Source: Escherichia coli (lineage in GTDB: Bacteria; Pseudomonadota; Gammaproteobacteria; Enterobacterales; Enterobacteriaceae). From it: a stretch of DNA of 64,000 bases. Under the pieces are notes generated by a model. It was given only the letters and a program-made list of their open reading frames with translations, ran no database searches and was not told the origin of the DNA. The stretch is from the NCBI RefSeq assembly GCF_050320075.1, contig NZ_CP190018.1, one strand, 5' to 3'. This document shows positions 38,325 through 64,000 of this stretch, one piece after another. The position numbers were made by a program, and so were the translations under genes. How positions within the stretch are numbered: position 1 is the stretch's first letter; each line of letters begins with the position of its first letter.

Positions 38325-41248
<2,924 letters not shown>

Positions 41249-42257: not shown

Positions 42258-42413
42258 TGTAAACCTTAACTTAACACTGTGATAGATATTAGACCATTGA
42301 TGATAACCAATACAAGTCATACTATTACGCCGTTCTCGATATGAACACGAATGCCAGTTGCGGATAATAGAAATGATATTTAAATCTGTTTAGGCAAATC
42401 CCCGGAGCTTGAA

Positions 42414-43334
42414 ATGAAAACTGTTTCGATAAAACATACTTACTGGGATATAGCTGCTGATATCTATTTCCCTGACGATTTTAATAGTGAAAAAAAGTAT
42501 CCTGCCATTATCAGCGCCCATCCAATTGGAAGCTGCAAAGAACAGACATCGGGTAGTGTGTATGGTGCCGCCCTGGCAAAAGCTGGTTTTATCGTCATTG
42601 CTTTTGATGCCAGTTTTCAGGGAAGCAGCGGTGGAGAACCGCGTTATCTGGAAGATCCAACAATGCGAGTAAAAGACTTCAGCATTGTCGTTGATTACCT
42701 TACCACCTTACCTTACGTTGATGCCGGGCGTATTGGTGTACTGGGTATTTGTGGTGGAGGTGGATATGCCATTAATGCCGCAATGACAGAACGTCGAATT
42801 AAAGCTATTGGTACTGTCACGGGTGCAAACTACGGGCGTCTTATGCGTGAGGGATTTACAGCGTTTAATCCTATCGGAGCACTCGAAGCGATGGCGCAAC
42901 AAAGAACAGACGAAGCTAACGGCGCAAAACTTCGCGTAGATGATTTACTCCCCTCTTCTCCGGATGCAGCTCTTGAAGCGGGATTAACAGAAATAGACCT
43001 TTTTGAAGCCACAGAATATTATCGTTCGCCACGAGGCTGTGCACCTAATGGGGTAAATCGTTCGCTATTCTCACATCAGACTGTTGCCGTGGGTTGGGAT
43101 GCATTTCATCTTGCAGAAGTCCTGTTAACTCAACCAATAATGGTTGTGGTGGGCGATAGAGTGGGCGCATTTGGTGCCTACCGTGACGGCTGCGAAATTA
43201 TTGGCCGCGCTGCCTCAAAACATAAAGAGCTGGTCGTGGTTGAAGGTTATTCACATTACGACCTGTATGATAAGCCAGAACCTGTGAAACAGGCACTCGA
43301 AAAATTAATTCCTTTTTATAAAACACATTTGTAA
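42414..43334 (+). CDS. Alpha/beta-fold hydrolase (dienelactone-hydrolase-like), cytoplasmic, 306 aa
   Basis: Nucleophile-elbow-like LGICGGGGYA and a C-terminal HxD region (GYSHYDLYD). No signal peptide. Paralogue of 61616..62752. Confidence 0.65.
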   Translation: MKTVSIKHTYWDIAADIYFPDDFNSEKKYPAIISAHPIGSCKEQTSGSVYGAALAKAGFIVIAFDASFQGSSGGEPRYLEDPTMRVKDFSIVVDYLTTLPYVDAGRIGVLGICGGGGYAINAAMTERRIKAIGTVTGANYGRLMREGFTAFNPIGALEAMAQQRTDEANGAKLRVDDLLPSSPDAALEAGLTEIDLFEATEYYRSPRGCAPNGVNRSLFSHQTVAVGWDAFHLAEVLLTQPIMVVVGDRVGAFGAYRDGCEIIGRAASKHKELVVVEGYSHYDLYDKPEPVKQALEKLIPFYKTHL

Positions 43335-43507
43335 TAATCTTACAGGGAGATTCCTTATCTCCCTGACATTTATCCTTTATTGACTACACAACAATAATAA
43401 AATTACTCAAAAAGAATTCTATTAAAGGAAAAAAAGCATCAAAAAGTAGCAACTCAACTTATTAAGATTATACGCATTAAAATCAGATAAACATTTGAGG
43501 TATTGTT

Positions 43508-44650
43508 ATGACAAATAAACACCCATCATTGTTTTCTCCTTTTATGCTGACAGAAAAAATAAAGCTACGTAATCGTATCGTTATGGCTCCTATGACAACC
43601 TGGTCAGCTAATCCTGATGGAACCATCTCTGAGCAAGAACTCGAATTTTATAAACGTCGCTCACAAAATGTTGGTTTAGTAATAACAGGATGCACCTATG
43701 TCACGCCAAGCGGCATTGGGTTTACTCATGAATTTGCCGCGTATGACGACCGTTTCATTAACAGCCTTGAAAAGTTAGCAGCTGCAGCCAAAAGTGGCGG
43801 TGCTCCGGCTATTTTGCAGATTTTCCACGCTGGTAATAAAGCCATCCCGGAGCTTGTGCCAAATAACGATGTTATTAGTGCCAGCGCATCAAGCGTAAAA
43901 TCTGGTGACTTTATGAAGAGAGTGGTACAAAGCAGGGAAATGACTGAAAACGAAATTCAGGAAACCATTAGAGCATTCGGAGATGTCACAAAAAGGGCGA
44001 TTAAAGCAGGTTTTGATGGCGTTGAACTTCATGGTGCGCACGGATTCCTTCTACAGAATTTCTTCTCCCCTCTATTTAACCAGCGTAATGACCGATGGGG
44101 AGGAGATCTCGAAAGACGTATGCGATTCCCGCTGGCCGTATTACAGGAAGTAAAAAATGTAGTCTATGAATATGCGACAAAGCCCTTTGCCATCGGTTAC
44201 AGAATATCTCCTGAAGAATCTGCAACAGGGGGGCTGCGGATAGAGGATACTTATAAACTCCTTGATCGGCTCATTGCATCCGGTATTTCGTATATACATA
44301 CCTCGCTGGTCAGTATTAACGATAGCTACCCTGTTGAGTCGCCAAATGGCCCCCGAACTATTGAATTGATTTTAAATCATATTGCAGGCAGAGTGCCGGT
44401 AATCGCTGCAGGTAAAATACGCACACCGTCTCAGGCTCAAGAAGCAATTTCCACTGGCCTGCCACTTGTTGCGATCGGTAAAGGGCTGGTGATAAATCCA
44501 GAATGGGTGACTTTAGCTGAATCAGGTAGAAGCCATGAAATTCAAACAACCCTTAATCCACAACTTGTTCCTGAATTAACCATTCCGGATAAACTATGGG
44601 ATCAAATTCAGGCATCGAAAGGAACTGGCTGGTTTCCGTTAATGGATTAA
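43508..44650 (+). CDS. Old-Yellow-Enzyme family NADH:flavin oxidoreductase, 380 aa
   Basis: OYE motifs: RIVMAPMTT, GFDGVELHGAHGFLLQNFFSP, and a C-terminal TIM-barrel GKG segment. Confidence 0.8.
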   Translation: MTNKHPSLFSPFMLTEKIKLRNRIVMAPMTTWSANPDGTISEQELEFYKRRSQNVGLVITGCTYVTPSGIGFTHEFAAYDDRFINSLEKLAAAAKSGGAPAILQIFHAGNKAIPELVPNNDVISASASSVKSGDFMKRVVQSREMTENEIQETIRAFGDVTKRAIKAGFDGVELHGAHGFLLQNFFSPLFNQRNDRWGGDLERRMRFPLAVLQEVKNVVYEYATKPFAIGYRISPEESATGGLRIEDTYKLLDRLIASGISYIHTSLVSINDSYPVESPNGPRTIELILNHIAGRVPVIAAGKIRTPSQAQEAISTGLPLVAIGKGLVINPEWVTLAESGRSHEIQTTLNPQLVPELTIPDKLWDQIQASKGTGWFPLMD

Positions 44651-45121
44651 ATATCTATTACTCTCCCGAGTGTAAAACTATCAAACCAATGAGTAACCGA
44701 TACAGCCTCGCAAATTCTTTCAGATAATTAACCCGTCACTGCGGCACGTTCTCTCATAAGGCGTGCCTGCTGTGTAATCCAGTATGGATCCAGCATAGTT
44801 GACGGCTTAATAGACTCAATTCCTTTCCCAGGTTACCAACAACGATATCTTGTATAACACCCCAGAAGATACGACATTATGATGAGATGAGGTATGCTCC
44901 TCAGCGCCAATCAACGCCAGGGCTGGGCCAGTTTTGAGATCAGACTCATTCCCGGACTGACTTCAGGCGACATATATCAATGACGTTGGGGCAATAAAAG
45001 ATAGCCGATGTAATACATCTATTCAAATTTGTGATACATGTCAAAAAATTGGTTGACCAAACTCGTTATTTATATAAGGGCACTTACGAAGTGCACTCTT
45101 TTTTAAAGCGAGGAAGTACCA

Positions 45122-45223
45122 ATGAAAGAGAATAAAGTACAACAAATCAGTCATAAACTGATTAATATCGTTGTTTTTGTCGCAATTGTAGAATACGCCT
45201 ATTTATTTCTCCATTTCTATTAA
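45122..45223 (+). CDS. ykgR: Small membrane protein, 33 aa
   Basis: ATG preceded by a GAGGAAG ribosome-binding site. Translation MKENKVQQISHKLINIVVFVAIVEYAYLFLHFY has a single helix. Found by hand; too short for the ORF track. Confidence 0.55.
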   Translation: MKENKVQQISHKLINIVVFVAIVEYAYLFLHFY

Positions 45224-45552
45224 TAACGGCAATAAACTGTTCACTTCAGTGATATTAAAAAATATGCATCCTCTCCCTTTTTTGTAAGTAATTATTATAT
45301 CCGTGGGAGAGGAATACACGCTGTCCGGCAATCAATCAAACTGCGATAAATCATCGGCCAGTAAAATGGAGATAGCCTCCATTCTCGAAAAATTCATACT
45401 CTCAGCGAAACCATCACTCATCAAGGCGTTTATGGGAGCGTCGCCAATGGCTGCTAACAATGCCAGACTTCCCCGTTGCCGAAATTCCACATACCACAAA
45501 TGGTCACAGGGATTGGGTGTTGAAATGATCCGGATGAGCATGTATCTTTATG

Positions 45553-45570
45553 GTTATGTTATAACATAAC
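45553..45570. promoter_or_regulatory. Zur box (zinc-uptake-regulator operator) upstream of ykgM
   Basis: Perfect 18-bp palindrome GTTATGTTATAACATAAC ending 12 nt before the ykgM start codon. Confidence 0.7.
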
Positions 45571-45581
45571 AGGTAAAAATG

Positions 45582-45845
45582 ATGAAGCCCAATATCCATC
45601 CTGAGTATCGTACTGTGGTGTTCCACGACACCAGTGTTGATGAGTACTTTAAAATCGGCTCGACTATCAAAACAGACCGTGAGATTGAGCTGGATGGAGT
45701 AACGTATCCGTACGTGACAATTGATGTCTCTTCTAAATCGCACCCGTTCTATACAGGGAAGCTGAGAACAGTGGCATCAGAAGGAAATGTTGCACGATTC
45801 ACCCAACGTTTTGGTCGTTTTGTTAGCACGAAAAAGGGGGCATGA
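45582..45845 (+). CDS. ykgM: Ribosomal protein L31 paralogue (type B, lacks the zinc ribbon), 87 aa
   Basis: [32 protein letters not shown]... is an L31-type sequence without the CxxC pairs. Zur box immediately upstream. Confidence 0.9.
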
Positions 45846-45985
45846 TGAAAGTCCTTAACTCTCTGCGTACCGCAAAAGAACGCCATCCAGACTGTCAGAT
45901 TGTGAAGCGAAAAGGACGGCTATATGTGATTTGTAAATCTAATCCACGTTTTAAGGCCGTTCAGGGTCGTAAGAAAAAACGTTGA
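45845..45985 (+). CDS. ykgO: Ribosomal protein L36 paralogue, 46 aa
   Basis: Hand translation [46 protein letters not shown]. The start overlaps the ykgM stop. Too short for the ORF track. Confidence 0.85.
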
Positions 45986-46036
45986 TTCAAAATTCGACGA
46001 ATTAACGATATTTGTCTGATTAATAATCAGACCGGA

Positions 46037-46075
46037 TTAATGTTGGTGTATTTATTACACCAGCATTAATTTTCC
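46037..46075 (+). terminator. Probable rho-independent terminator of ykgM-ykgO
   Basis: 14-bp stem TTAATGTTGGTGTA / TACACCAGCATTAA with one mismatch, loop TTTAT, then TTTTCC. Confidence 0.55.
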
Positions 46076-46391
46076 TGGGGATGTATCTTCCTGTTCATTT
46101 AAAGTCAACTGCCTGACGTTTCTCTCCGAATATTCCATTATATTAATGTTGACTTGTTGACCAGGTGCGCCCTGTATGCTGGCATCAACTCTCTTTTAGA
46201 CTGAACACGCCACTCAGTTTCCTCCCTTTGCGACGCAGCCTGCATTTACACTCAAACGGTTAAGATGATAAATGTGGTAAATCTGTTGGTACTGACATAA
46301 AAACGTTTACGCCACAGGAACGGCCTGATCCACCGGTAACCCCATCGCCGACGTTCGAGTGCCAGTTAGAGTAACGCGCACAGATGACTGA

Positions 46392-46616
46392 ATGCAGTGC
46401 CCTGGCAAAGAGGCCATCGTTCCTGTGACAACTGGCAGTCTTCGTTTAACTTCACTTAATTTGGCTCTTAGGGGGCTTACCGGACAGATGACGTACTTAC
46501 ACCTGTTTAATTTTTCATCACTTATTGGGATGAACCCCCATAACCATTTTGTGCGGCATGTTAATCCATTAAAACACCTTACTGATTGGCAAATCATCTT
46601 TAATTATGACTCATGA
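46392..46616 (+). CDS. Hypothetical small protein, 74 aa; possibly ykgL by position
   Basis: ORF-track entry in the AT-rich region upstream of ecpR. No recognisable motif, so coding status is uncertain. Confidence 0.25.
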   Translation: MQCPGKEAIVPVTTGSLRLTSLNLALRGLTGQMTYLHLFNFSSLIGMNPHNHFVRHVNPLKHLTDWQIIFNYDS

Positions 46617-46999
46617 TAGTTTTATATTCTATTTCTTATCATTTAAACTTGTTTTTTTACTAGTCCATTACACAACACATTAAGACTATTCCTAACACCT
46701 CAGGGCAAAGTTCCTGGCTAATATAAAATGCAAGTAAGAATTGAACGTTATATTGCCAATAACCTTATGAAACTGAATGTCTTTTTCTTCTTATCAAAAA
46801 AGCAATATTTTCATTTTTTGTAAATATTGACTTAACCATGGAATTCCTTTTCTGTTCACATATTGACACTCATCAGGAAAAAAACATAAATTTAAACCTA
46901 ATCGAAATAATTAAAACTTAATCTCGTTTAACCTATATTGATATGTGCTACGTATCTTATTTACTTCCGATTTACTAAAGAAACTGAATGTACCTGTAA

Positions 47000-47611
<612 letters not shown>

Positions 47612-47685
47612 ACTCCAGGCAAGTTAGTTTTAAAAAATGACTCACAGGGACATCACGTCCTCAATTCAACTCGGGAAGAAAAGCA

Positions 47686-48273
47686 ATGAAAAAAAAGGTT
47701 CTGGCAATAGCTCTGGTAACGGTGTTTACCGGCATGGGTGTGGCGCAGGCTGCTGACGTAACAGCTCAGGCTGTAGCGACCTGGTCAGCAACAGCCAAAA
47801 AAGACACCACCAGTAAGCTGGTTGTGACGCCACTCGGTAGCCTGGCGTTCCAGTATGCCGAAGGCATTAAAGGTTTTAACTCACAGAAAGGTCTATTTGA
47901 CGTAGCTATCGAGGGTGACTCAACGGCTACCGCCTTTAAACTGACCTCACGTCTTATCACCAACACCTTAACCCAGTTGGATACCTCAGGTTCCACACTG
48001 AATGTGGGCGTTGATTATAACGGCGCGGCAGTCGAAAAAACTGGCGATACCGTGATGATCGATACCGCCAACGGCGTACTGGGCGGCAACCTTAGCCCAC
48101 TGGCTAACGGTTACAATGCCAGCAATCGTACCACCGCACAGGATGGTTTCACTTTCTCCATCATCAGCGGCACCACCAATGGTACCACCGCAGTAACCGA
48201 TTACAGCACTCTACCGGAAGGCATCTGGAGCGGCGACGTTAGCGTACAGTTCGACGCTACCTGGACCAGTTAA
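47686..48273 (+). CDS. ecpA: E. coli common pilus major subunit, 195 aa
   Basis: Signal peptide [22 protein letters not shown] followed by a Thr/Gly-rich pilin domain. Confidence 0.9.
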
Positions 48274-48329
48274 TCTCTCTGATGTACCAGCAGGGGTACC
48301 CCCCTGCTTTATTCCTGGACGGAATTGTT

Positions 48330-48998
48330 ATGAAAAAGCACCTTCTGCCTCTCGCTCTGCTGTTTTCCGGAATATCTCCGGCCCAGGCGCTGGATGTCGG
48401 CGATATATCATCGTTTATGAACAGTGACAGCAGCACGCTGAGCAAAACGATCCAAAACAGTACCGACAGTGGCCGCCTCATCAATATCCGTCTCGAACGG
48501 CTCTCTTCACCGCTTGACGACGGGCAGGTTATCGCAATGGACAAGCCGGATGAGTTGCTACTCACTCCCGCTAGCTTGCTGCTACCCGCCCAAGCCAGCG
48601 AAGTGATCCGCTTCTTCTATAAGGGACCAGCAGATGAAAAAGAGCGCTACTACCGCATTGTCTGGTTCGATCAGGCCCTCAGTGATGCGCAGCGCGATAA
48701 TGCCAACCGCAGCGCTGTAGCCACTGCTTCCGCCCGCATCGGCACCATTCTGGTCGTCGCCCCCCGCCAGGCGAACTACCGCTTTCAGTACGCCAACGGC
48801 TCCCTGACGAATACAGGAAATGCGACGCTGCGGATCCTCGCCTACGGCCCCTGCCTGAAAGCCGCCAATGGTAAGGAGTGTAAAGAGAATTACTACCTGA
48901 TGCCGGGTAAGTCGCGTCGTTTTACCCGCGTGGATACGGCGGATAACAAAGGACGGGTTGCACTTTGGCAGGGTGATAAGTTCATTCCCGTGAAATAG
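48330..48998 (+). CDS. ecpB: Ecp periplasmic chaperone, 222 aa
   Basis: Signal peptide [20 protein letters not shown]. Start taken at the internal ATG; the track start is 48282. Confidence 0.85.
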
Positions 48999-49023
48999 AT
49001 AGCTGTGCAGATGGATAACGACA

Positions 49024-51549
49024 ATGCCTTTACGACGGTTCTCCCCAGGACTGAAAGCCCAGTTTGCCTTCGGCATGGTCTTTTTGTTCGTTCAGCCCGA
49101 TGCCAGCGCTGCTGACATAAGTGCGCAGCAAATCGGTGGGGTGATTATTCCGCAGGCCTTCAGTCAGGCGCTTCAGGACGGCATGAGCGTCCCGCTCTAT
49201 ATTCATCTTGCCGGTAGCCAGGGTCGCCAGGACGATCAGCGAATCGGCAGCGCTTTTATCTGGTTGGATGATGGACAGCTACGCATCCGGAAAATACAGC
49301 TGGAAGAGAGTGAAGATAACGCCAGTGTCAGCGAACAAACTCGACAGCAGCTGATGGCTCTGGCCAACGCCCCGTTCAATGAGGCCCTTACCATCCCCCT
49401 GACTGACAACGCGCAGCTGGATCTCAGCTTGCGCCAACTGCTGCTGCAGCTGGTGGTCAAGCGCGAAGCGCTGGGCACCGTACTACGCTCACGTAGCGAA
49501 GACATCGGGCAGTCCAGTGTTAACACCCTCAGCAGTAATCTGAGCTATAACTTCGGCGTCTATAACAACCAGTTGCGTAACGGCGGGAGCAACACATCCA
49601 GCTATCTGTCGCTGAATAACGTTACTGCGCTGCGCGAACATCACGTGGTGCTCGACGGCTCACTGTACGGGATTGGTAGCGGTCAACAGGACAGTGAATT
49701 ATATAAAGCGATGTATGAACGCGATTTTGCTGGTCACCGATTTGCCGGTGGAATGCTCGACACCTGGAACTTGCAGTCCTTAGGGCCGATGACCGCCATT
49801 TCAGCAGGGAAGATTTACGGCCTTTCCTGGGGAAACCAGGCCAGCTCCACCATCTTCGACAGCAGCCAGTCAGCCACGCCAGTGATCGCCTTTTTACCGG
49901 CGGCGGGCGAAGTACATCTCACCCGTGATGGGCGACTACTAAGCGTTCAGAACTTCACCATGGGCAATCATGAAGTGGATACCCGGGGTCTACCGTACGG
50001 TATTTACGATGTGGAAGTTGAGGTGATCGTTAACGGTCGCGTGATCAGCAAACGCACCCAGCGGGTCAATAAGCTGTTTAGCCGGGGGCGCGGCGTCGGT
50101 GCACCACTGGCGTGGCAGATATGGGGCGGTAGCTTTCATATGGATCGCTGGTCGGAAAACGGGAAAAAGACGCGACCAGCTAAAGAGAGTTGGCTGGCAG
50201 GTGCCTCAACCTCCGGCTCACTGAGTACGCTTAGCTGGGCGGCAACGGGATATGGATACGATAATCAGGCGGTGGGTGAAACCCGTCTGACGCTGCCGCT
50301 TGGGGGGGCGATCAACGTTAACCTGCAAAACATGCTGGCCAGTGACAGCTCATGGAGCAACATCGCCAGCATCAGCGCCACTCTACCTGGAGGCTTCAGT
50401 TCTCTGTGGGTTAACCAGGAAAAAACCCGCATTGGCAATCAATTGCGACGTAGCGATGCCGACAACCGTGCAATCGGCGGCACACTCAACCTGAACTCAC
50501 TGTGGTCGAAGCTGGGTACGTTCAGCATCAGCTACAATGATGACCGCCGCTACAACAGCCATTATTACACGGCAGATTACTATCAAAATGTCTACAGCGG
50601 TCCCTTTGGTTCGCTTGGCCTGCGGGCCGGTATTCAGCGCTATAACAACGGCGACAGCAGCGCCAATACAGGGAAATATATCGCTCTCGATCTCTCGCTA
50701 CCACTGGGCAACTGGTTTAGCGCAGGGATGACCCATCAAAACGGCTACACCATGGCAAACCTGTCAGCACGCAAACAGTTTGATGAAGGAACCATTCGCA
50801 CTGTTGGTGCCAATCTGTCACGAGCCATCTCCGGCGATACCGGTGATGACAAAACCCTCAGCGGTGGGGCGTATGCACAGTTCGACGCTCGTTACGCCAG
50901 CGGAACGCTGAACGTCAATAGCGCGGCGGACGGCTACATCAATACCAATTTGACCGCCAACGGCAGCGTCGGCTGGCAAGGTAAAAACATCGCTGCCAGC
51001 GGGCGGACCGATGGCAATGCTGGGGTGATATTCGACACTGGCCTGGAGAACGATGGTCAGATCAGCGCCAAAATCAACGGGCGGATTTTCCCGCTTAACG
51101 GCAAGCGTAACTATCTCCCGCTCTCTCCCTATGGAAGATATGAGGTGGAGTTACAGAACAGCAAAAACTCACTCGACAGTTACGATATCGTCAGCGGTCG
51201 CAAAAGCCATCTGACTCTCTATCCAGGCAATGTCGCTGTCATTGAGCCAGAAGTGAAGCAGATGGTTACCGTCTCCGGTCGTATCCGTGCGGAAGACGGC
51301 ACACTGCTGGCTAACGCACGGATTAACAACCATATCGGCCGAACCCGAACCGATGAAAACGGCGAGTTTGTCATGGACGTGGATAAGAAATACCCCACTA
51401 TCGATTTTCGCTACAGTGGCAATAAAACCTGCGAAGTGGCACTGGAACTCAACCAGGCGCGCGGTGCCGTCTGGGTCGGTGATGTGGTCTGCAGCGGCCT
51501 CTCATCGTGGGCGGCGGTGACGCAGACAGGAGAAGAGAATGAGAGTTAA
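49024..51549 (+). CDS. ecpC: Ecp outer-membrane usher, 841 aa
   Basis: Large beta-rich protein with a signal peptide, in the usher position. Confidence 0.85.
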
Positions 51550-53861: not shown

Positions 53862-54173
53862 GACTTATCCATCGGTCAAGGGAAGAACTCCACCTCAGAG
53901 ACTCAAAAATCGTTTAAATAATGTGGAAGCGATCGTCAATGTCACCTGTAACGATGGGCTTTCTCATATGTACACCATAGTGTTCAGGAGACGCGGAAAG
54001 GTACCAGGCAGCCTGCTAACGAGTGGTTTATTCACGAATTAGTACGTAAAATCGGTAACGGCTGGAAATCATTCAATACTCACACTATCGAAAGTTCCCC
54101 AGCCAACCGCGGTACGTTCTTACATACGATGTACCGCTGTTCTCTTTACGATTTATAGCTGTACTGGTGAATT

Positions 54174-54503
54174 ATGAGCAATCTGAATCCATGCATGACG
54201 TGTGGTGCCTGTTGTGCATTTTTCCGCGTCTCTTTTTACTGGGCCGAAGCCGACGATGCTGGCGGTACCATTCCCGCCAGGCTCACTGAACAAATATCCC
54301 CTTTTCACCGATGCATGAGCGGTACCAATCAGAAAAACCCCCGATGTATTGCCCTTGCAGGAACACCGGGCAAAAATGCCTGCTGCACGATATATAAAAA
54401 TCGATCGTCCACGTGCAGAGAATTCGCCATGTCTGGTGAGAACGGAGTCGTCAATGAGGCTTGCAATCGTGCAAGAGCTAAATACGGGCTGACACCGTTA
54501 TAA
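54174..54503 (+). CDS. ykgJ: YkgJ-family cysteine-cluster protein (putative Zn/Fe-binding), 109 aa
   Basis: CMTCGACC and further Cys motifs (CxxxxC, ACCTIY, CREF). Confidence 0.75.
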
Positions 54504-54525
54504 ATATGCAATAATTAATTGCACT

Positions 54526-54558
54526 GCCCCGCCAGCTATAATCGCGGGGCTTCGTTTT
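54526..54558 (+). terminator. Probable rho-independent terminator after ykgJ
   Basis: GCCCCGC-(11 nt loop)-GCGGGGC followed by TTCGTTTTT. Confidence 0.6.
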
Positions 54559-54709
54559 TCAGGGATAACAAAACCCGAAACTTCTTCCATCTGCCAGCAA
54601 CAATGCCTCTTCCTCTATAGTGTTCTCCGGATCTACAGCATCCTGAAGTAGCGCGATGTACTCACGGGCTATCTGCTTCAGAAAGTAAAAAGCAATGTTT
54701 TTAACCTAT

Positions 54710-54738
54710 AAAAATGGCGCTGCATTTGCGCCATTTTT
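54710..54738. terminator. Probable terminator hairpin downstream of yagU (possibly bidirectional)
   Basis: AAAAATGGCGC-TGCATTT-GCGCCATTTTT: an 11-bp perfect stem flanked by A- and T-runs. Confidence 0.6.
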
Positions 54739-54751
54739 ATTATTCAATGCA

Positions 54752-55366
54752 TTATCTGTTTGAGCCTAAAGGGATCTCAGGGTCTGGCTCATGAGTAATT
54801 CTGTTTCGTAAATCTCTGCGAATAATTTCAATGGACCAGAACCAGACTAAATGTCCAAAAATTTCAGAAACATTCTCATACCACGGGAGATCAAACAGAG
54901 GTGGCGTCAGTCCCATGAGAGGGAATGAAATCATATGAACAAAAAGTTGGGCTAAAGCACCTGCCAGTAAGCCCTGCCAGAGTTTAATTTTTGGAAATAC
55001 TTCAGCGACCACACAATAACCGACAGCAAACACTATCGAAAAGATAATGTGCGTAACACCAACCCAGTTAAAGACATGCCCGGCAAAGGTATAAACAGCC
55101 GCATTGGGATCTGTCAGCCCCAACCAGTCTCGAAGAAAAATATACGGAGGATTGAGAAAATTACGGGAGCAATCAATTTGCCCAGCAGCCCTGATTAATG
55201 ATTCCGGGCCACACGCTGCATTAAACATATCCACCGGGCTACGTGGCGGCAATGGAACTTCAGCCCCCCACTTCACAAATGCGGAAACAACGCCAGCAAT
55301 CAGCCCAATGAATGCAGCAAGACCATAACGTCTGCGGTTCGGTGGAGTTTGTTCAAATATATTCAT
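54752..55366 (-). CDS. yagU: DUF1440-family inner-membrane protein, 204 aa
   Basis: Polytopic membrane protein. Length and position (between ykgJ and paoA) match yagU. Confidence 0.75.
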
Positions 55367-55771
55367 ATCTACCCTGCTTGTACCATTATGTTATACACCT
55401 CTTCAGGAGTATTCATAAAATAAGACAAATGTAAAGAACTGTATTGTTTTGTATAATGCAATGGTGACTAATCGCCAATGAATATAAGCACCATCATTTC
55501 TCCCTATTTTTATATTAAAAGTGACAACGATTTACAGGGTGATGCTGAGCTGACAATCACAGGTTTCCTTATCGGTTTTTGCATCGCACAACTAAAGCAA
55601 TAAACTAGCTCCCGTCATCGGCGAATATGAATTAATTAGCCGGGCTCATAGCTGCATTCGCGTTTTAAGAATAATCCTCCTGCTCTCACCGACTATGCTT
55701 AACGTTTAAAAAAGCATCAGCACTCTCGCAACGCACTCTTATTTTCCCCTTTAGAATACCGGAGGCCTGGT

Positions 55772-56461
55772 ATGAGCAACCAAGGCGAATACCCCGAAGA
55801 TAATCGGGTTGGGAAGCACGAGCCGCACGATTTTAGTTTGACCCGTCGCGATCTGATTAAAGTCAGCGCCGCAACGGCGGCGACCGCCGTGGTTTATCCT
55901 CATTCTACGCTTGCGGCAAGCGTTCCGGCAGCTACACCCGCGCCAGAGATAATGCCCCTGACACTTAAGGTGAACGGCAAAACCGAGCAGTTGGACGTTG
56001 ATACCCGAACCACGCTACTGGACGCTTTGCGTGAAAATCTGCATCTGATCGGTACCAAGAAAGGTTGCGATCACGGACAGTGCGGAGCCTGTACCGTGCT
56101 GGTCAATGGTCGAAGGCTTAATGCCTGCCTGACGCTTGCAGTCATGCATCAGGGGGCCGAGATCACCACCATTGAAGGCCTGGGTTCACCAGAGAATCTT
56201 CACCCCATGCAGGCGGCCTTTATCAAGCATGATGGCTTCCAGTGCGGCTACTGCACCTCCGGGCAAATTTGCTCATCAGTAGCGGTGCTAAAAGAGATTC
56301 AGGACGGCATTCCCAGTCACGTCACGGTCGATTTGGTTTCCCCTCCAGAAAGAACGGCCGATGAGATCCGTGAACGTATGAGCGGCAACATCTGTCGCTG
56401 TGGTGCATACGCTAACATCCTTGCCGCCATTGAAGACGCTGCGGGGGAGATAAAATCATGA
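55772..56461 (+). CDS. paoA: Periplasmic aldehyde oxidoreductase 2Fe-2S subunit with Tat signal peptide, 229 aa
   Basis: Twin-arginine motif [19 protein letters not shown]. Two [2Fe-2S] clusters ([11 protein letters not shown]..., [17 protein letters not shown]). Confidence 0.9.
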
Positions 56462-59205
56462 AGGCGTTTACCTATGAACGTGTGAACACCCCGGCCGAGG
56501 CGGCACTTAGCGCTCAGCGCGTACCTGGCGCAAAATTTATCGCTGGCGGGACCAATCTGCTGGACCTGATGAAGCTGGAAATTGAAACGCCAACCCACCT
56601 TATCGATGTGAACGGGCTCGGGCTCGATAAGATTGAAGTGACCGACGCGGGTGGGCTGCGCATCGGCGCACTGGTACGGAACACCGACCTGGCGGCTCAC
56701 GAGCGCGTGCGTCGTGATTACGCGGTACTCTCCCGCGCCCTGCTCGCTGGCGCGTCTGGTCAGTTACGCAATCAGGCAACCACCGCAGGTAATCTGCTCC
56801 AGCGCACGCGCTGCCCCTATTTTTACGACACCAATCAGCCCTGCAATAAGCGCCTGCCCGGGAGCGGCTGCGCGGCACTTGAAGGCTTTAGCCGTCAGCA
56901 CGCGGTGGTAGGCGTAAGCGAAGCCTGCATTGCCACCCATCCGAGCGATATGGCGGTCGCAATGCGGTTGCTGGATGCGGTGGTGGAAACCATCACGCCG
57001 GAGGGAAAGACTCGCAGTATCACACTGGCTGATTTTTATCACCCTCCGGGAAAAACGCCGCACATTGAAACCGCCCTGCTTCCCGGTGAGCTTATCGTTG
57101 CGGTGACGTTACCTCCGCCGCTCGGCGGAAAACATATCTACCGCAAGGTGCGCGATCGCGCCTCCTACGCCTTTGCCCTGGTATCGGTCGCGGCGATTAT
57201 TCAGCCTGACGGCAGCGGGCGCGTCGCGCTGGGCGTACTGGCTGTCATTACCGCCAGTAACGCCGGGGCACTCGGCAAAGGCGACAAAAACACCGCCAGG
57301 CTGTTAGGCGGCCCCACTATTGAACACTATCATCAGGCCATTGCGCTGGTAGTGGCCGAGACCTTCGAACAGGCGCGAGCGGCGGCCTCGCTGGTGCAGG
57401 CGCACTATCGCCGTAATAAAGGAGCTTACTCCCTGGCGGACGAGAAACAGGCCGTCAGTCAGCCGCCGGAAGACACGCCCGATAAAAATGTTGGTGACTT
57501 TGACGGGGCTTTCACCTCCGCTGCGGTGAAGATTGATGCTACCTACACGACCCCGGACCAGAGCCATATGGCGATGGAGCCGCATGCCTCGATGGCCGTC
57601 TGGGATGGAAATAAGCTTACCCTCTGGACCTCAAATCAGATGATTGACTGGTGCCGCACCGATCTGGCAAAAACGCTGAAAGTGCCCGTGGAGAATGTGC
57701 GTATTATCTCCCCGTATATCGGCGGAGGGTTTGGCGGCAAGCTGTTCCTGAGAAGCGATGCGCTGCTGGCGGCCCTCGCCGCCCGTGCGGTGAAACGTCC
57801 GGTTAAAGTGATGCTCCCCCGCCCCACTATTCCCAATAACACCACGCACCGCCCCGCCACCCTTCAGCACTTGCGTATCGGTACTGACCAGAGCGGGAAA
57901 ATCACCGCTATCTCACATGAAAGCTGGTCCGGAAACCTGCCCGGCGGCACGCCGGAAACGGCGGTACAGCAAAGCGAATTTCTTTACGCAGGGGCGAATC
58001 GTCATACCGGCCTGCGGCTCGCCATGCTTGATTTGCCGGAAGGGAACGCCATGCGTGCGCCCGGCGAAGCCCCCGGTCTGATGGCGCTCGAAATCGCGAT
58101 CGATGAACTGGCGGAAAAAGCGGGCATCGATCCCGTCGAGTTTCGCATCCTGAATGACACTCAGGTTGACCCCGCCGATCCGACGCGCCGCTTCTCTCGC
58201 CGTCAGCTTATCGAGTGCTTGCGCACCGGAGCGGATAAATTTGGCTGGAAGCAGCGCAACGCCACACCCGGACAGGTACGCGACGGGGAGTGGCTAGTCG
58301 GCCACGGTGTTGCGGCGGGCTTTCGCAATAATCTGCTGGAAAAATCGGGTGCGTGGGTTCACCTGGAGCAAAACGGCACCGTTACCGTGGAAACGGACAT
58401 GACCGATATTGGCACTGGCAGCTACACCATTCTGGCCCAGACGGCAGCGGAAATGCTTGGCGTACCGCTGGAGCAGGTTGCGGTTCACCTCGGCGATTCC
58501 AGTTTCCCGGTTTCTGCGGGGTCTGGTGGACAATGGGGCGCGAATACCTCCACCTCCGGCGTTTACGCCGCCTGTGTGAAGCTTCGCGAAATGATTGCCT
58601 CGGCAGTCGGGTTTGATCCTGAGCAGTCGCAGTTTGCCGACGGCAAGATTACCAACGGTACCCGAAGCGCCACGCTACATGAGGCCACCGCAGGCGGCAG
58701 ACTGACAGCGGAAGAGAGCATTGAATTCGGAATACTGAGCAAGGAGTACCAGCAATCGACCTTTGCCGGGCATTTTGTGGAGGTCGGCGTGCATAGCGCG
58801 ACGGGAGAAGTTCGGGTCCGGCGTATGCTCGCCGTGTGCGCAGCGGGGCGCATTCTGAATCCGAAAACTGCACGCAGCCAGGTCATTGGCGCGATGACTA
58901 TGGGCATGGGCGCGGCACTGATGGAGGAGCTGGCGGTAGATGACCGTTTGGGCTACTTCGTTAATCACGATATGGCGGGGTATGAAGTGCCGGTTCATGC
59001 GGATATCCCAAAACAGGAGGTGATTTTCCTGGATGATACCGACCCCATCTCCTCCCCGATGAAGGCCAAAGGTGTCGGTGAGCTGGGCCTGTGCGGCGTG
59101 AGCGCGGCTATCGCCAACGCGGTGTATAACGCCACCGGTATTCGGGTACGGGATTATCCCATCACTCTGGATAAGCTGCTCGATAAGCTGCCGGATGTGG
59201 TTTAA
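56458..59205 (+). CDS. paoC: Apparent in-frame fusion of paoB (FAD subunit, truncated C-terminus) to paoC (molybdopterin subunit, truncated N-terminus), 915 aa
   Basis: The ORF starts with a CO-dehydrogenase-type FAD-binding domain ([13 protein letters not shown]...), overlapping the paoA stop. Around residue 250 (...[26 protein letters not shown]...) it passes directly into a molybdopterin-subunit sequence that runs to the end (...[14 protein letters not shown]). Junction is near 57228-57235. Confidence 0.7.
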
Positions 59206-59214
59206 GGAGGAACA

Positions 59215-60168
59215 ATGTCATACTCGCTTTTTGACAAAGACGAGCACTGGCATAAGCCAGAGCAGGCGTTTCTCACCGATGACCACCGGGCCATTCTGCG
59301 CTTCGCCGTAGAGGCGCTAATGTCCAGTAAAGGAGCGGTGCTGGTGACGCTGGTGGAAATACGCGGCGGCGCGGCGCGCCCGCTCGGGGCGCAGATGGTG
59401 GTGCGCGAAGATGGTCATTACTGCGGTTTTGTCTCTGGCGGCTGCGTGGAGGCCGCTGCCGCTTTTGAAGCGCTGGAGATGATGGGCTCAGGCCGCGATC
59501 GCGAAATTCGCTATGGTGAAGGTTCGCCGTGGTTTGACATCGTTCTGCCCTGCGGCGGTGGGATCACGCTGACGCTCCATAAACTACGCTCGGCACAACC
59601 TCTGCTCGCCGTGCTGAACCGCCTGGAACAGAGAAAACCGGCGGGTCTGCGCTACGATCCGCAAGCACAATCGTTGGTGTGCCTGCCCACGCAAACCCGG
59701 ACGGGCTGGAATCTCAATGGCTTTGAGGTGGGGTTCAGACCATGCGTCAGGCTGATGATTTACGGACGTTCTCTTGAGGCGCAGGCAACCGCGAGTCTTG
59801 CAGCAGCCACAGGCTATGACAGCCATATCTTCGATCTTTTTCCGGCCTCAGCCAGCGCTCAGATCGATACCGATACGGCGGTCATTTTGCTGTGCCATGA
59901 TCTCAACCGGGAACTGCCAGTGTTGCAGGCCGCGCGAGAAGCAAAACCCTTTTATCTCGGCGCATTGGGCAGCTATCGAACCCACACTTTACGTCTGCAA
60001 AAGCTCCACGAGCTGGGATGGTCCAGGGAGGAGACAGAGCAAATCCGGGCACCTGTCGGGATATTCCCCAAAGCCCGGGATGCGCATACTCTGGCCCTTT
60101 CCGTACTGGCAGAAGTCGCCGCTGTACGTCTCCGTCAGGAGGATTCATGCCTGCCCCCATCGTCCTGA
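59215..60168 (+). CDS. paoD: XdhC-like molybdenum-cofactor insertion chaperone, 317 aa
   Basis: XdhC/CoxI-family architecture. Follows paoC after 9 nt with a GGAGG ribosome-binding site. Confidence 0.8.
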   Translation: MSYSLFDKDEHWHKPEQAFLTDDHRAILRFAVEALMSSKGAVLVTLVEIRGGAARPLGAQMVVREDGHYCGFVSGGCVEAAAAFEALEMMGSGRDREIRYGEGSPWFDIVLPCGGGITLTLHKLRSAQPLLAVLNRLEQRKPAGLRYDPQAQSLVCLPTQTRTGWNLNGFEVGFRPCVRLMIYGRSLEAQATASLAAATGYDSHIFDLFPASASAQIDTDTAVILLCHDLNRELPVLQAAREAKPFYLGALGSYRTHTLRLQKLHELGWSREETEQIRAPVGIFPKARDAHTLALSVLAEVAAVRLRQEDSCLPPSS

Positions 60169-60254
60169 TCCTCGCGGCGGGGCGTGGGGAGCGCTTCCTC
60201 ACCTCCGGGGGAAATACCCATAAATTAAGAGAAAAATCTGCAGTAGCCGTTTAA
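60150..60254 (+). pseudogene. 35-codon remnant resembling the N-terminus of a MobA/MocA-type molybdenum-cofactor nucleotidyltransferase
   Basis: MPAPIVLILAAGRGERFLTSGGNTHKL carries the LAAGxGxRF nucleotide-binding motif of that family, then stops after 35 codons. Overlaps the paoD 3' end. Confidence 0.4.
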
Positions 60255-60346
60255 GAAAATCACCTAAATCGTTTAAAAGAGCGCCCAACCCATAGTGGGC
60301 GCTTATCGCCTTGTGAAACTTATTCAGCAACGCGCGCCTCGCCGGA

Positions 60347-61540
60347 CTAAAGCGCACCGGCCTTCTGGCGTGCGGTAACAAAGGTCAGTACGCCAGCGCA
60401 AAGGAGCAGCACGCTACTCATAGCAAACGTGCTCTGCCAGCCAAGGCGGTCAAACACAATGCCTCCTGCCGTTGATCCAAGGGCGATGGCGAGCTGAATC
60501 ACCGCGACCATGAGCCCGCCTCCAGCTTCGGCGTTGTCAGGCAACGTACGCGCAATCCATGTCCACCATCCGGTTGGCGCGGCGGTGGCCAGCATGCCCC
60601 AGAGTCCTAACAGCAGCGAGACCGTCCAGACGTGATGCCCGGTAAGCATCAGACCGATGGCAATGACGGCCATCAGTCCGGGTATGGCCATCAGCGTGGG
60701 GTAGAATTTTCTGTTGAGAAATGCCGAAACAACCAGCGTGCCAATAAAACCGGCCACGCCGATAATCAGCAAAATCGACGACAAGCCTAAGGAATTAACC
60801 CGTGTCACCGACTCCAGAAACGGGCGCACATAGGTGAATAGCGCAAACTGCCCCATGAAAAACAGGCCACAAGCTATCATGCCGACCACAACCATGCGGC
60901 GGCTAAATAAGCGGAATACCGCGCCACATGAAGTGTGGCTTTTATTCGCATCCATGCTTGGCAGGCTGATGCACTGCCAGATAAAGGCGACAACCGCGAT
61001 GGGCACCAGGCACAAGAAAGCGCCTCGCCATCCGACCGTAGCCCCCAGATAGCTTCCCAGCGGTGCGGCCACGACCGTCGCCAGCGCATTACCGGCGTTG
61101 AAAATTGCCAGCGCACGCGTGACCTGATGCTGCGGCACCAGACGAATCGCCGTTGCCGCTGACATCGACCAGAATCCGCCAATAGCCACACCAATCATCG
61201 CACGACCGACCATATACATCAGATAACTGGAAGCCAGCGCAATAATAAGCCCCGATACGGCCATCAGAACCGTCATCCCCAGCTGCAGGAACTTACGATT
61301 CATCTTTCCAGCTAGCGTTGAAAGCGTCAGGCTGGTCAGAACCGCCAGCGCGCCGGAGATAGCAATCCCCTGCCCTGCCAGCCCCTCCGTCACGCCTAAA
61401 TCGCGGGTAATCGGCGTGAGCAGGCTGACGGGCATAAATTCAGAAGCAATCAGCACAAACACGCACAGGGTCATGGCAAAAATACCGCCCCAGTATGCGC
61501 GCTGATGATGAGGTGATAGTGTTTGGCTTAGTGTCGACAT
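60347..61540 (-). CDS. MFS-family transporter (12 predicted helices), 397 aa
   Basis: Hydrophobic throughout, with MFS-like repeats. The stem-loop AGCGCCCA...TGGGCGCT at 60281-60304 just beyond the stop may terminate it. Confidence 0.75.
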   Translation of the reverse strand: MSTLSQTLSPHHQRAYWGGIFAMTLCVFVLIASEFMPVSLLTPITRDLGVTEGLAGQGIAISGALAVLTSLTLSTLAGKMNRKFLQLGMTVLMAVSGLIIALASSYLMYMVGRAMIGVAIGGFWSMSAATAIRLVPQHQVTRALAIFNAGNALATVVAAPLGSYLGATVGWRGAFLCLVPIAVVAFIWQCISLPSMDANKSHTSCGAVFRLFSRRMVVVGMIACGLFFMGQFALFTYVRPFLESVTRVNSLGLSSILLIIGVAGFIGTLVVSAFLNRKFYPTLMAIPGLMAVIAIGLMLTGHHVWTVSLLLGLWGMLATAAPTGWWTWIARTLPDNAEAGGGLMVAVIQLAIALGSTAGGIVFDRLGWQSTFAMSSVLLLCAGVLTFVTARQKAGAL

Positions 61541-61615
61541 AGTGAAATTTCACAAAGATCAGGATAAAAGCCACCAGCCTATGGCCGGTGGCTTTGCATC
61601 AATTCAGGAGAGGTT

Positions 61616-62752
61616 TTATTTCAGTTTGGTCTGGAAAAATTGTTCGAACTTCGCGAAAGGTATTTTTCCGGCCACGTTATCGTACAGGTCCACGTGATTT
61701 GCCCCTGGTACCACCACCAACTCTTTGTCTTTACTGCCAACCGCCTTGTAAGCATCTTCAGCAAAATAGCGTGAATGTGCTTTCTCACCGGTCACAATCA
61801 GCGTCGGAATGGTGATTTCACTGGCGTAGCTCAACAGCGGCATATTCATAAATGACAGCGGCATCGTTGCCGTCCACGCCCCGGTAGAGTTAACGGAACG
61901 TTCGTGGAAGCCGCGCGGCATGCGATAGTAGTCAAAGAACTCTTTCAGTACCGGATGAGGATTTGCCGGCAGCGTTTCTGGCAGAATGCGCTCGCCCGCA
62001 CTGACCTTGCCGTTGCTGTCGACATTAATATCATGACCACCGTGAGCGAACGTTCCGCTCTGCGCATCCTTCCAGCGCTGTTCATTCAGATATTGCAGAA
62101 CAGCACGACGGTCGGCGGTAGAATAACGGTCTTTGCCATCCCCCACACCATGGCCCATCGCCCGGCTCATGTCATACATCACGCTGGTAGCTACCGCTTT
62201 AACGCGGGTATCCATCGCCGCGTCGTTCAGCGCCATGCCGCCCCAGCCACAAATACCGAGCAGCCCGATACGGTTGCGATCTACCTCTTTTTGCAGCCCT
62301 AAGAAATCCACTGCCGCGCTGAAATCTTCAGTGTTGATATCCGGTGAGGCGACGTTTCGCGGATAGCCGCCGCTTTCCCCGGTGTAAGAAGGATCGAACG
62401 CCAGGGTAACAAACCCTCGTTCCGCCAGCGTCTGCGCATACAGGCCGCTGGATTGCTCTTTCACCGCGCCAAATGGCCCACTGACCGCAATCGCCGCCAG
62501 CTTGCGATCGCCACGGTCTTTAGGCAGGTAAAGATCGCCCACTAAGGTGATGCCATATCGGTTCGGGAACGAGACTTTACGGTGATCGACTTTCTGGCTC
62601 TCGGCGAACGTTTTATCCCATTTATCTGTCATGGACACAGGGGCATTAGGATTGGTTGAATCAGCATAACTCATTGTCGTGACTCCACTTAATGATGCGA
62701 AAAGCAGCATGGTCGGCATCGCGGTTTTTAGCGTGCGGGTGAAGGCTTTCAT
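61616..62752 (-). CDS. Secreted alpha/beta-fold hydrolase (dienelactone-hydrolase-like), about 378 aa
   Basis: Signal peptide MKAFTRTLKTAMPTMLLFASLSGVTTMSYA. Shares motifs with the cytoplasmic paralogue at 42414..43334 (LGICGWGG, YYRMPRG, VVVPGANHVDLYD). Confidence 0.65.
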   Translation of the reverse strand: MKAFTRTLKTAMPTMLLFASLSGVTTMSYADSTNPNAPVSMTDKWDKTFAESQKVDHRKVSFPNRYGITLVGDLYLPKDRGDRKLAAIAVSGPFGAVKEQSSGLYAQTLAERGFVTLAFDPSYTGESGGYPRNVASPDINTEDFSAAVDFLGLQKEVDRNRIGLLGICGWGGMALNDAAMDTRVKAVATSVMYDMSRAMGHGVGDGKDRYSTADRRAVLQYLNEQRWKDAQSGTFAHGGHDINVDSNGKVSAGERILPETLPANPHPVLKEFFDYYRMPRGFHERSVNSTGAWTATMPLSFMNMPLLSYASEITIPTLIVTGEKAHSRYFAEDAYKAVGSKDKELVVVPGANHVDLYDNVAGKIPFAKFEQFFQTKLK

Positions 62753-62938
62753 AAAAATCCCCATAAAAAACAACAGAGAGATACAGGTTTCCGACGGACA
62801 ACGCTGCGGTGCTTTACTTTGATGGGGTCATTATAGTGAGCAGAATTAGTGCTGATTAGGGGGCGATTAATGCTAAGATTAATACCATATTGTTATAAAT
62901 TAATGTGGAGATTGCCGGCATGAAGGGGGGATGTTTCA

Positions 62939-63823: not shown

Positions 63824-64000
63824 ACGTTAACAACGACCGACTCTTCACTGTGCAAAATTGTGTCAGGTAGTCCCTCTGCGTTCAATTCCAGGGTCTGCTT
63901 TGAGCGAGAAAGAGGGGACTATCCAGCAATGGAGATCACCCAAAAGAAAAAACCACCTGGCTCCCTCGACAACCTTCATCCGGGCATTTAGCCTCAATCA

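Follow-up and report, generated by a model that had tools for sequence, protein, structure and literature searches.

Two LysR-linked cysteine hydrolases of the YcjY/PA2218 family in one Escherichia coli chromosome region: likely members of separate modules

YcjY of Escherichia coli K-12 (b1327) and PA2218 of Pseudomonas aeruginosa are members of a family of cysteine hydrolases, and their structures, PDB 5xb6 and PDB 2hdw, respectively, were both deposited as those of uncharacterised proteins. The LysR-type regulator PgrR is reported to bind the ycjY/ycjZ spacer and to control ycjY-ymjDC-mpaA (PMC5934670). According to a review, Rychlewski et al. listed ycjY as a candidate short-chain poly-3-hydroxybutyrate (cPHB) polymerase, on the basis of structural similarity and a GXCXG motif (PMC3709699). 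In the literature on YcjY, PA2218, 5XB6 and 2HDW, no functional or structural paper was found, and for YcjY only the cPHB polymerase prediction and the PgrR regulon listing were retrieved. Another enzyme to be compared, UilS, is dienelactone-hydrolase-like and has demonstrated N-acyl-homoserine lactone (AHL) lactonase activity (PMC11633161). Here, we describe two related genes, hyd1 and hyd2, which lie 18 kb apart in one chromosome region of E. coli, within a stretch of 64,000 nucleotides (contig NZ_CP190018.1 of assembly GCF_050320075.1; hereafter, the window). Both loci were 100% identical to those of several complete E. coli genomes, such as strain 746 (NZ_CP023353.1).

Taken as a whole, including thiol chemistry and control by LysR-type regulators, the evidence is likely explained by two separate, dispensable three-gene modules, each on a different ancient branch of the YcjY/PA2218 family. 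The first module would consist of a regulator gene (LysR1) divergent from hyd1, followed by a flavin reductase gene, and would provide a cytoplasmic enzyme. The second would consist of LysR2 divergent from hyd2, followed by a gene for a major facilitator superfamily (MFS) transporter, and would provide a periplasmic enzyme with a cleavable Sec signal. We regard Hyd1 and Hyd2 as deep paralogues in separate modules, which reached or persisted in E. coli independently, and not as duplicates that arose within the lineage.

Homology and probable separate histories of Hyd1 and Hyd2

Hyd1 and Hyd2 were aligned by BLASTP over 323 columns, with 33% identity and an E-value of 1e-44, a similarity well outside what chance would give. 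An earlier note on this DNA, made from the sequence alone, had called the two proteins paralogous, and their homology was confirmed at a level above the 20% identity that the note had set as its own threshold for refutation. The conserved blocks it had pointed out were also found to be real, namely LGICGGGG and LGICGWGG, YYRSPRG and YYRMPRG, and VVVEGYSHYDLYD and VVVPGANHVDLYD, in Hyd1 and Hyd2, respectively. These blocks are common to the whole family: no fewer than 89% of the representatives, a set of 79 full-length proteins clustered at 50% identity, had Cys168, Tyr275-Tyr276, and His353 (Hyd2 numbering). The coordinates of the reading frames, the divergent LysR gene beside each hydrolase gene, and the MFS gene after hyd2 were all as the note had described them. 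The features of the two modules are as follows, lengths being given in amino acids (aa), base pairs (bp) or nucleotides (nt).

41331..42257, minus strand: LysR1, LysR-type regulator of 308 aa, divergent from hyd1, with HTH_1 and LysR_substrate domains; RefSeq gives the same coordinates
42258..42413: divergent control region between LysR1 and hyd1, 156 bp, with GGAG 7 nt before the ATG at 42414
42414..43334, plus strand: Hyd1, predicted cytoplasmic YcjY-like α/β hydrolase with a Cys nucleophile, 306 aa (PDB 5xb6 match); codons of Cys113 at 42750-42752 and of His281 at 43254-43256
43508..44650, plus strand: NADH:flavin oxidoreductase of the Old Yellow Enzyme (OYE) family, 380 aa (Pfam Oxidored_FMN, E 6e-78)
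60347..61540, minus strand: MFS transporter, 397 aa, DHA1/NepI-like (Pfam MFS_1, E 2e-36)
61616..62752, minus strand: Hyd2, predicted exported PA2218-like α/β hydrolase with a Cys nucleophile, 378-aa precursor (PDB 2hdw match); codons of Cys168 at 62251-62249 and of His353 at 61696-61694
62663..62752, minus strand: predicted Sec signal peptide of Hyd2, codons 1-30, MKAFTRTLKTAMPTMLLFASLSGVTTMSYA, with cleavage after SYA
62753..62938: divergent control region between hyd2 and LysR2, 186 bp
62939..63823, plus strand: LysR2, LysR-type regulator of 294 aa, divergent from hyd2, with HTH_1 and LysR_substrate domains

The gene order along the window is rclABC, fdeC, the first group (two aldo/keto reductase genes, two LysR genes, hyd1, and the flavin reductase gene), ykgR/M/O/L, ecpRABCDE, ykgJ, yagU, paoABCD, and the second group (the MFS gene, hyd2, and LysR2). 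No further member of the YcjY/PA2218 family was found in the window by tblastn.

Hyd1 matched YcjY (PDB 5xb6) over residues 12-304 with an E-value of 4e-67 and is assigned to the YcjY/PA2218 family (COG1073-like) on its sequence. Hyd2 matched PA2218 (PDB 2hdw) with an E-value of 8e-125, over residues 30-382 of its full 385-aa open reading frame (ORF; 61616..62773, minus strand), in which the ATG at 62752 gives the 378-aa protein. In its AlphaFold model (predicted local distance difference test, pLDDT, 90.7), Hyd2 is an α/β hydrolase fold with a lid at about residues 195-305 and is superposable on the solved family members, with target-normalised template-modelling (TM) scores of 0.96 to 2hdw and 0.92 to 5xb6. 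The next structural neighbours of the model were a Chloroflexus hydrolase, the fungal thioesterase DcsB, GrgF, feruloyl esterases, and monoglyceride lipases. Pfam placed both proteins among the α/β hydrolases, with weak and overlapping matches to the Peptidase_S15, PETase, Hydrolase_4, DLH, and Abhydrolase families. When 1.84 billion cluster representatives were searched with a profile, 854 proteins matched at E ≤ 1e-30.

The earlier note had also proposed that one gene arose from the other by duplication, followed by relocalisation of the product. For this genome and its lineage, such an origin was unsupported, given a mutual identity of 33% as against 75-97% to orthologues elsewhere. The nearest relatives of Hyd1 outside E. 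coli were 75-82% identical and spread over several phyla (Burkholderia, Paraburkholderia, Cupriavidus, Massilia, Pseudomonas, Stenotrophomonas, Shewanella, Rhodococcus, Mycobacterium, Nitrospira, and the Firmicute Propionispora), and those of Hyd2 were 85-97% identical and spread over Enterobacterales. Identity to YcjY was 41% for Hyd1 (E ~1e-70) and 34% for Hyd2. In a neighbour-joining tree of family representatives, Hyd1 and Hyd2 lay on opposite sides of the midpoint root, with Hyd2 in a mostly exported clade sharing a WDKTF motif, and Hyd1 and YcjY in separate subclades of a mostly cytoplasmic clade. Lone signal-bearing members within the cytoplasmic clade suggest that export may have been gained or lost several times.

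The regulators followed a different pattern from the enzymes. PgrR shared 41% identity with LysR2 and 30% with LysR1, so that LysR2 is nearer to PgrR than LysR1 is, whereas of the two hydrolases it is Hyd1 that is nearer to YcjY. Because of this incongruence, a simple co-duplication of regulator and enzyme is not indicated. A repeat search of the 38-64 kb part of the window found no shared repeats flanking the two modules, and thus nothing within the window that would indicate a segmental duplication or a common mobile vehicle. The G+C content was 41-45% in the hyd1 module and 52-57% in the hyd2 module.

Among 5426 complete E. coli genomes, hyd1 was present in 2118 (39%) and hyd2 in 945 (17%), and the two genes appear to be present or absent independently of each other. 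The variable sites are as follows.

38326..44558: 6.2-kb block without counterpart in IAI1/K-12-like E. coli (BLASTN breakpoints against IAI1)
60223..64000: variable site after paoD, whose K-12-like counterpart is at 4723-6746 of comparison locus L014

The first block, of 6,233 bp, comprises the two aldo/keto reductase genes, the two LysR genes, hyd1, and most of the OYE gene. It is missing from IAI1/K-12-like genomes, in which only a pseudogene of the final ~90 nt is left of the OYE gene, and because this 3' end remains, the polymorphism is read as a deletion and not as an insertion. At the second site, homology to K-12-like genomes downstream of paoD stops at 60223, where these genomes carry the unrelated LysR fragment yagP and the CP4-6 integrase gene intF in place of the MFS gene, hyd2, and LysR2. 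The site downstream of paoD is thus a variable hot spot. The possibility that K-12 yagP is a remnant of LysR2 was ruled out (29% identity).

The alleles of hyd2 also varied within E. coli. In 33 complete genomes, the best hyd2 match was a divergent allele, with identities of 80-90% over the gene and 60-80% over the whole module, and E. coli proteins ~88% identical to Hyd2 also exist in the database. A few genomes had two matching places, and three places were on plasmids. These divergent alleles, double matches, and plasmid places suggest repeated exchange with other Enterobacterales.

Regulators, neighbouring genes and candidate chemistry

Each hydrolase gene has its own divergent LysR gene, at 156 bp from hyd1 and 186 bp from hyd2, that is, within ~200 bp in both cases. 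The two regulators were just 30% identical to each other, in line with the earlier statement that a separate LysR gene lies beside each hydrolase gene. The classical recognition site of LysR-type regulators is a T-N11-A motif near position -65. In the control region of hyd2, on the minus strand, we found a Shine-Dalgarno (SD) sequence GGGGA at 62762-62758, a TATAAT at 62835-62830, and an AT-rich block at 62900-62871, inside which the T-N11-A motif TAACAATATGGTA occupies 62895-62883, ~65 nt upstream of the inferred transcription start. All four elements were conserved in an alignment of the upstream regions of E. coli, Dickeya, and Yersinia, from which, and not from a promoter scan, the TATAAT was identified. 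The conserved T-N11-A block fits the classical LysR site and is a candidate for it. In the control region of hyd1, a dyad-symmetric T-N11-A candidate, TAACACTGTGATA, was present at 42272-42284; it is unconserved and at an atypical distance, and was not relied on.

Because of the divergent architecture, the T-N11-A motif ~65 nt upstream of the conserved TATAAT of hyd2, and the published PgrR-ycjY case, we infer control by the LysR proteins: each would probably bind the shared intergenic region and switch on its hydrolase operon in response to a small-molecule signal. Another LysR gene of the first group, LysR0 (40238-41131), lies in tandem with LysR1, just downstream of it, and tail-to-tail with the two aldo/keto reductase genes (38340-40207). 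LysR0 shared 47% identity with PgrR and 43% with LysR2, and is nearer to both than LysR1 is.

Counterparts of both modules were found in other bacteria. In Dickeya, a LysR gene is divergent from the hyd2 orthologue, which is followed by a cyclophilin-like gene and then an MFS gene; in Yersinia, the arrangement is the same except that the MFS gene precedes the cyclophilin-like gene. The LysR proteins of these two genera were 79-89% identical to LysR2, and the hyd2-adjacent MFS protein of Yersinia was 77% identical to that of the window. In Paraburkholderia, a LysR gene (product 52% identical to LysR1) is divergent from the hyd1 orthologue, which is followed by an NAD_binding_10 reductase gene. 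The hyd1 orthologue of P. aeruginosa is likewise followed by an NAD_binding_10 gene and is divergent from the gene of an AraC-type regulator, and in Rhodococcus an HTH_31 regulator gene is divergent from an NAD_binding_10 gene, followed by hyd1. The OYE gene downstream of hyd1 in the window thus occupies the place where hyd1 orthologues elsewhere have an NAD_binding_10/NmrA-like reductase gene. More distant PA2218-like genes adjoin a flavodoxin-like reductase gene or a cyclophilin-like gene.

The cyclophilin-like genes belong to Cyclophil_like2 (PF18050) and were observed beside PA2218-like exported hydrolases in Dickeya, in Yersinia, and on an unrelated metagenome contig; the E. coli module has none.

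Comparison locus L003, 7234-7743: Cyclophil_like2 gene
Comparison locus L009, 7601-8104: Cyclophil_like2 gene
Comparison locus L012, 4576-4998: Cyclophil_like2 gene

The MFS gene of the window lies 75 bp downstream of hyd2, and its product scored 290 bits against the NCBIfam NepI model, under the model cutoff of 584. In RefSeq, this protein is modelled with 375 aa, whereas the 397-aa ORF aligned with the Yersinia orthologue from residue 1, with 77% identity; the RefSeq start may be set too far downstream, as for Hyd2 (see below).

In K-12, ycjY is a third family copy of E. coli, again divergent from a LysR gene, pgrR. Downstream of it, YmjC (59 aa, comparison locus L002, 4681-4863) matched the N-terminus of NAD_binding_10 (E 1e-5), and ymjD/ymjC look like the remains of a decayed reductase partner gene.

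Both proteins of the window have a G-x-C-x-G nucleophile elbow and an H-x-D-L-Y-D histidine motif, which place the catalytic residues at Cys113 and His281 in Hyd1 and at Cys168 and His353 in Hyd2. In the family, the nucleophile column was Cys in 70 of the 79 representatives, and the histidine was present in 74. Other family-conserved positions, in Hyd2 numbering, were K98-E99-Q100, D120, G125-x-S127-x-G129, D143, G166-x-C168, R183, R226, Y275-Y276, G322, H353, and Y357-D358. The canonical acid position after strand β7 is Asp248 in Hyd1 and Glu323 in Hyd2. Given the G-x-C-x-G elbow and the conserved His, thiol-dependent hydrolase chemistry is probable, with esters, lactones or thioesters as the probable targets of the YcjY/PA2218 family. 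An acyl-thioenzyme would form on the carbonyl of an ester, lactone, thioester or amide, and would be hydrolysed by His-activated water, as in dienelactone hydrolase.

The recurrent neighbours, that is, reductases (OYE, NmrA-like, and flavodoxin-like NAD(P)H enzymes) and an efflux-type MFS transporter, point weakly to an electrophilic lactone, ester or quinone-related compound, which would be processed or detoxified. The MFS transporter, closest to exporters of the DHA1 NepI/SotB type, might move the substrate or the product across the inner membrane, in either direction. The recurrent pairing with an NAD(P)H reductase is a testable lead to the substrate class. A broader proposal, which we put forward tentatively and consider rather unlikely, is that the family defines a widespread two-step pathway, in which an electrophilic lactone, ester or quinone-derived compound is first opened by the cysteine hydrolase, and the resulting product is then reduced by a coupled NAD(P)H enzyme of the NmrA-like, OYE or flavodoxin-like type. 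This pathway would exist in a cytoplasmic version (Hyd1, YcjY) and in a periplasmic version (Hyd2, PA2218), the latter with an efflux-type MFS transporter and often a cyclophilin-like protein. If so, the 75-82% identity of Hyd1 from Proteobacteria to Actinobacteria and Firmicutes would mean a single, specific, and widely met substrate.

A role in quorum quenching, with Hyd1 and Hyd2 as an intracellular and a periplasmic AHL lactonase of the UilS/AidA type, is improbable. The best NCBIfam match of both was indeed the UilS model NF047920, with 75.0 bits for Hyd1 and 67.1 bits for Hyd2, but these scores are far under the cutoff of 400 and concern the N-terminal half only; membership in the UilS family was rejected on this score. 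Moreover, the closest structures belong to functionally uncharacterised proteins and the next closest to thioesterases and feruloyl esterases, and the reductase and MFS neighbours do not point to quorum sensing. E. coli is not known to make AHLs, which also counts against such a role.

That the two proteins are peptidases or amidases, with unusual peptides such as those from the cell wall as substrates, seems about as improbable. Such a function would accord with the Pfam Peptidase_S15 match of Hyd1 (39.9 bits, above the cutoff of 23), and with the position of ycjY between mpaA and pgrR, next to mppA and ycjG, in the PgrR regulon of murein-peptide recycling. However, no more than positions 5-128 of the 262 in the S15 profile are matched, the nucleophile is Cys and not Ser, and neither module of the window is accompanied by peptide-metabolism genes. 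Peptidase S15 (PF02129, X-Pro dipeptidyl peptidase) was rejected as a family assignment, with a partial match for Hyd1, no match for Hyd2, and a Cys nucleophile. The conserved neighbour of the cytoplasmic branch across taxa is an NAD(P)H reductase gene, which is present in K-12 as the decayed copy ymjC; this suggests that the linkage of ycjY to mpaA is secondary.

Points against separate modules and the start codon of Hyd2

Several observations weigh against reading hyd1 and hyd2 as parts of two modules that differ in localisation and share a thiol chemistry. The neighbour-joining tree carries no support values. Only 37 of the 79 representatives have an acidic residue after strand β7, where YcjY has Ser; the invariant Asp120, Asp143, and Glu99 are alternative candidates for the triad acid. 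Scans of both loci for sigma-70 promoters and intrinsic terminators gave nothing above shuffle expectation, and hence no support for co-transcription of hyd2 with the MFS gene or of hyd1 with the OYE gene. The signal-peptide call combines a simple heuristic with comparative evidence. Finally, RefSeq/PGAP starts Hyd2 at an internal ATG at 62674, which gives a protein of 352 aa beginning 'MSYADST...' and without a signal (WP_122987197.1), and a plausible GGAG lies 8 nt upstream of this ATG.

If translation began at 62674, the signal peptide would be an artefact of start-codon choice and Hyd2 would be cytoplasmic like Hyd1. Besides the RefSeq model and the GGAG, this possibility has on its side 5 of the 120 closest Hyd2 homologues, which are called at 352 aa; however, 100 of the 120 are called at 378 aa. 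These homologues, 84-99% identical to Hyd2, came from Klebsiella, Buttiauxella, Kluyvera, Yersinia, Dickeya, Rahnella, Erwinia, and others. The first 30 residues varied among the orthologues but always included two or three basic residues and a hydrophobic core, lacked acidic residues, and ended in M-S-Y/H-A. In-frame three-residue deletions were observed in these N-termini, and the upstream 26 codons remained open. In some orthologues, Met27, the RefSeq start, is replaced by Ile or Lys, and the RefSeq start is therefore missing there. In the DNA alignment of E. coli, Dickeya, and Yersinia, the ATG at 62752 was conserved, together with a purine-rich SD sequence (GGGGA or GGAG) 5-6 nt before it. 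Codons 1-26 differed between E. coli and Yersinia at 3, 5, and 11 sites in codon positions 1, 2, and 3, respectively, a third-position bias that also argues for translation of the upstream codons.

Hyd2 residues 1-30 have the regions expected of a Sec signal peptide: three basic residues (Lys/Arg) and no acidic one (Asp/Glu), an h-region with a best 10-residue mean hydropathy of 2.0, and S-Y-A at positions -3 to -1 (Ser at -3, Ala at -1). Neither a lipobox nor a twin-arginine motif was found in these residues. In the model of Hyd2, pLDDT was <50 for residues 1-33. N-terminal length was bimodal in the family, with about half of the representatives beginning at the first strand of the fold and the others having 28-61 extra residues. 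The N-termini of these extended members resemble Sec, lipoprotein (LVAC, LAGC, LTSC) or twin-arginine (RRREFL, RRDLLK) signals, so that distant members would carry unrelated signals at the same place. On these grounds, a start at 62674 appears hardly probable. The signal peptide of Hyd2 looks real, and translation from 62752 is favoured over the RefSeq start.

Only Hyd2 was found to have an N-terminal extension, MKAFTRTLKTAMPTMLLFASLSGVTTMSYA followed by DS, as the earlier note had said. The ATG of Hyd1 is the first start codon after the in-frame stop, and the first strand of the fold is aligned right from residue 1 of the protein, which leaves no room for a signal. A predicted contrast between one cytoplasmic enzyme (Hyd1) and one exported enzyme (Hyd2) is thus well supported by the sequence evidence. 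Of what the note had said on localisation, this contrast held, and its concern that the signal might come from the choice of start codon did not, since the start and its SD sequence are conserved. Hyd2 would be exported by Sec, cleaved after Ala30, and act in the periplasm. The RefSeq model of Hyd2 (WP_122987197.1) is probably 26 codons short; hiding the signal in this way, it would mislead localisation-based analyses.

Surroundings of the modules and comparison with known systems

Next to the hyd2 module, a single ORF of 915 aa (56458-59205, junction at 57226-57235) results from an in-frame fusion of paoB with paoC. As compared with a K-12-like strain, the fusion corresponds to a 404-bp deletion with its junction in a 10-bp repeat, which removes the C-terminus of PaoB and the N-terminus of PaoC; RefSeq gives both genes as pseudogenes in the identical strain 746. 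Because of this loss, the periplasmic aldehyde oxidoreductase is probably inactive in this strain. Just past the end of the window, after LysR2, strain 746 has a duplicated ykgR fragment, an AbiEii/AbiEi toxin-antitoxin pair, a gene for a 1069-aa RNA-directed DNA polymerase, and an ash-family gene (comparison locus L001, 34029-39766), a stretch that looks like a mobile or defence islet.

The listing of ycjY among cPHB polymerase candidates, as well as the structural neighbours DcsB and GrgF, which are acyl-transfer or cyclising enzymes, would be compatible with Hyd1 and Hyd2 being acyltransferases or polymerases, such as cPHB synthases. We consider this very improbable: the listing is a prediction without demonstrated activity, no PHA synthase family was matched in Pfam or NCBIfam, and neither module has genes for the supply of CoA esters. 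That a gene was duplicated within E. coli or the enterobacterial lineage, with a signal peptide later added to one of the copies and a separate LysR circuit acquired by both, is highly improbable, for although the two homologous genes are 18 kb apart and each next to a LysR gene, they fall in different deep clades with far closer orthologues in other genera and phyla, the export, WDKTF motif, and LysR/MFS neighbours of Hyd2 already occur in Dickeya and Yersinia, exported WDKTF-type members exist in much more distant lineages, and the modules differ in G+C content and in presence or absence, with incongruent LysR and hydrolase similarities.

The pair described in the earlier note is real, but ordinary, and the evolutionary reading given there errs in time-scale and place. 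Deep paralogues that differ in localisation, each next to a LysR gene of its own, are common in bacterial genomes, and hyd1 and hyd2 already have generic annotations in thousands of E. coli genomes. What they add is that up to three LysR-coupled members of one cysteine-hydrolase family, with solved structures but functionally uncharacterised, occur in E. coli. Two of the three are dispensable, which provides natural presence/absence strains for phenotype screens.

Among known systems, YcjY is the closest to Hyd1: it also has 306 aa and no signal peptide, and it shares the G-I-C-x-G elbow, the H-x-D-L-Y-D motif, and the divergence from a LysR gene (PgrR/YcjZ) with the modules of the window. YcjY differs in belonging to another orthologous group and in lying in a murein-peptide recycling cluster, with a decayed NAD_binding_10 gene downstream. 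Unlike in that setting, hyd1 stands in a block of reductase genes, and Hyd2 is predicted to be exported. PA2218, deposited as a 'hypothetical protein', aligned with Hyd2 over the whole mature protein, including the WDKTF segment, with 58% identity in the structural superposition and a target-normalised TM-score of 0.96. Hyd2 differs from it by a ~20-residue insertion in the lid, and in coming from another genus; Hyd2 is a PA2218 orthologue.

More distantly, dienelactone hydrolase (PF01738, with a Cys-His-Asp triad) shares the α/β fold and the Cys nucleophile elbow with Hyd1 and Hyd2. The Pfam DLH matches were marginal: against the cutoff of 21, Hyd1 scored 25.0 bits with a partial match (profile positions 12-123 of 217) and Hyd2 21.1 bits with no stretch passing alone. 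The family of Hyd1 and Hyd2 differs from classical dienelactone hydrolases by its large lid and in having no neighbours from the chlorocatechol pathway. UilS of Serratia marcescens (NF047920) is a cytoplasmic hydrolase of similar type, which Hyd1 and Hyd2 match in its N-terminal half and below the cutoff, without being members of its family. The modules also resemble classical divergent LysR pairs, with a LysR gene 156-186 bp from its target and, for hyd2, a conserved T-N11-A block upstream of the TATAAT. In all these respects, nothing in the two modules departs from known kinds of system, and they represent ordinary gene-family biology.

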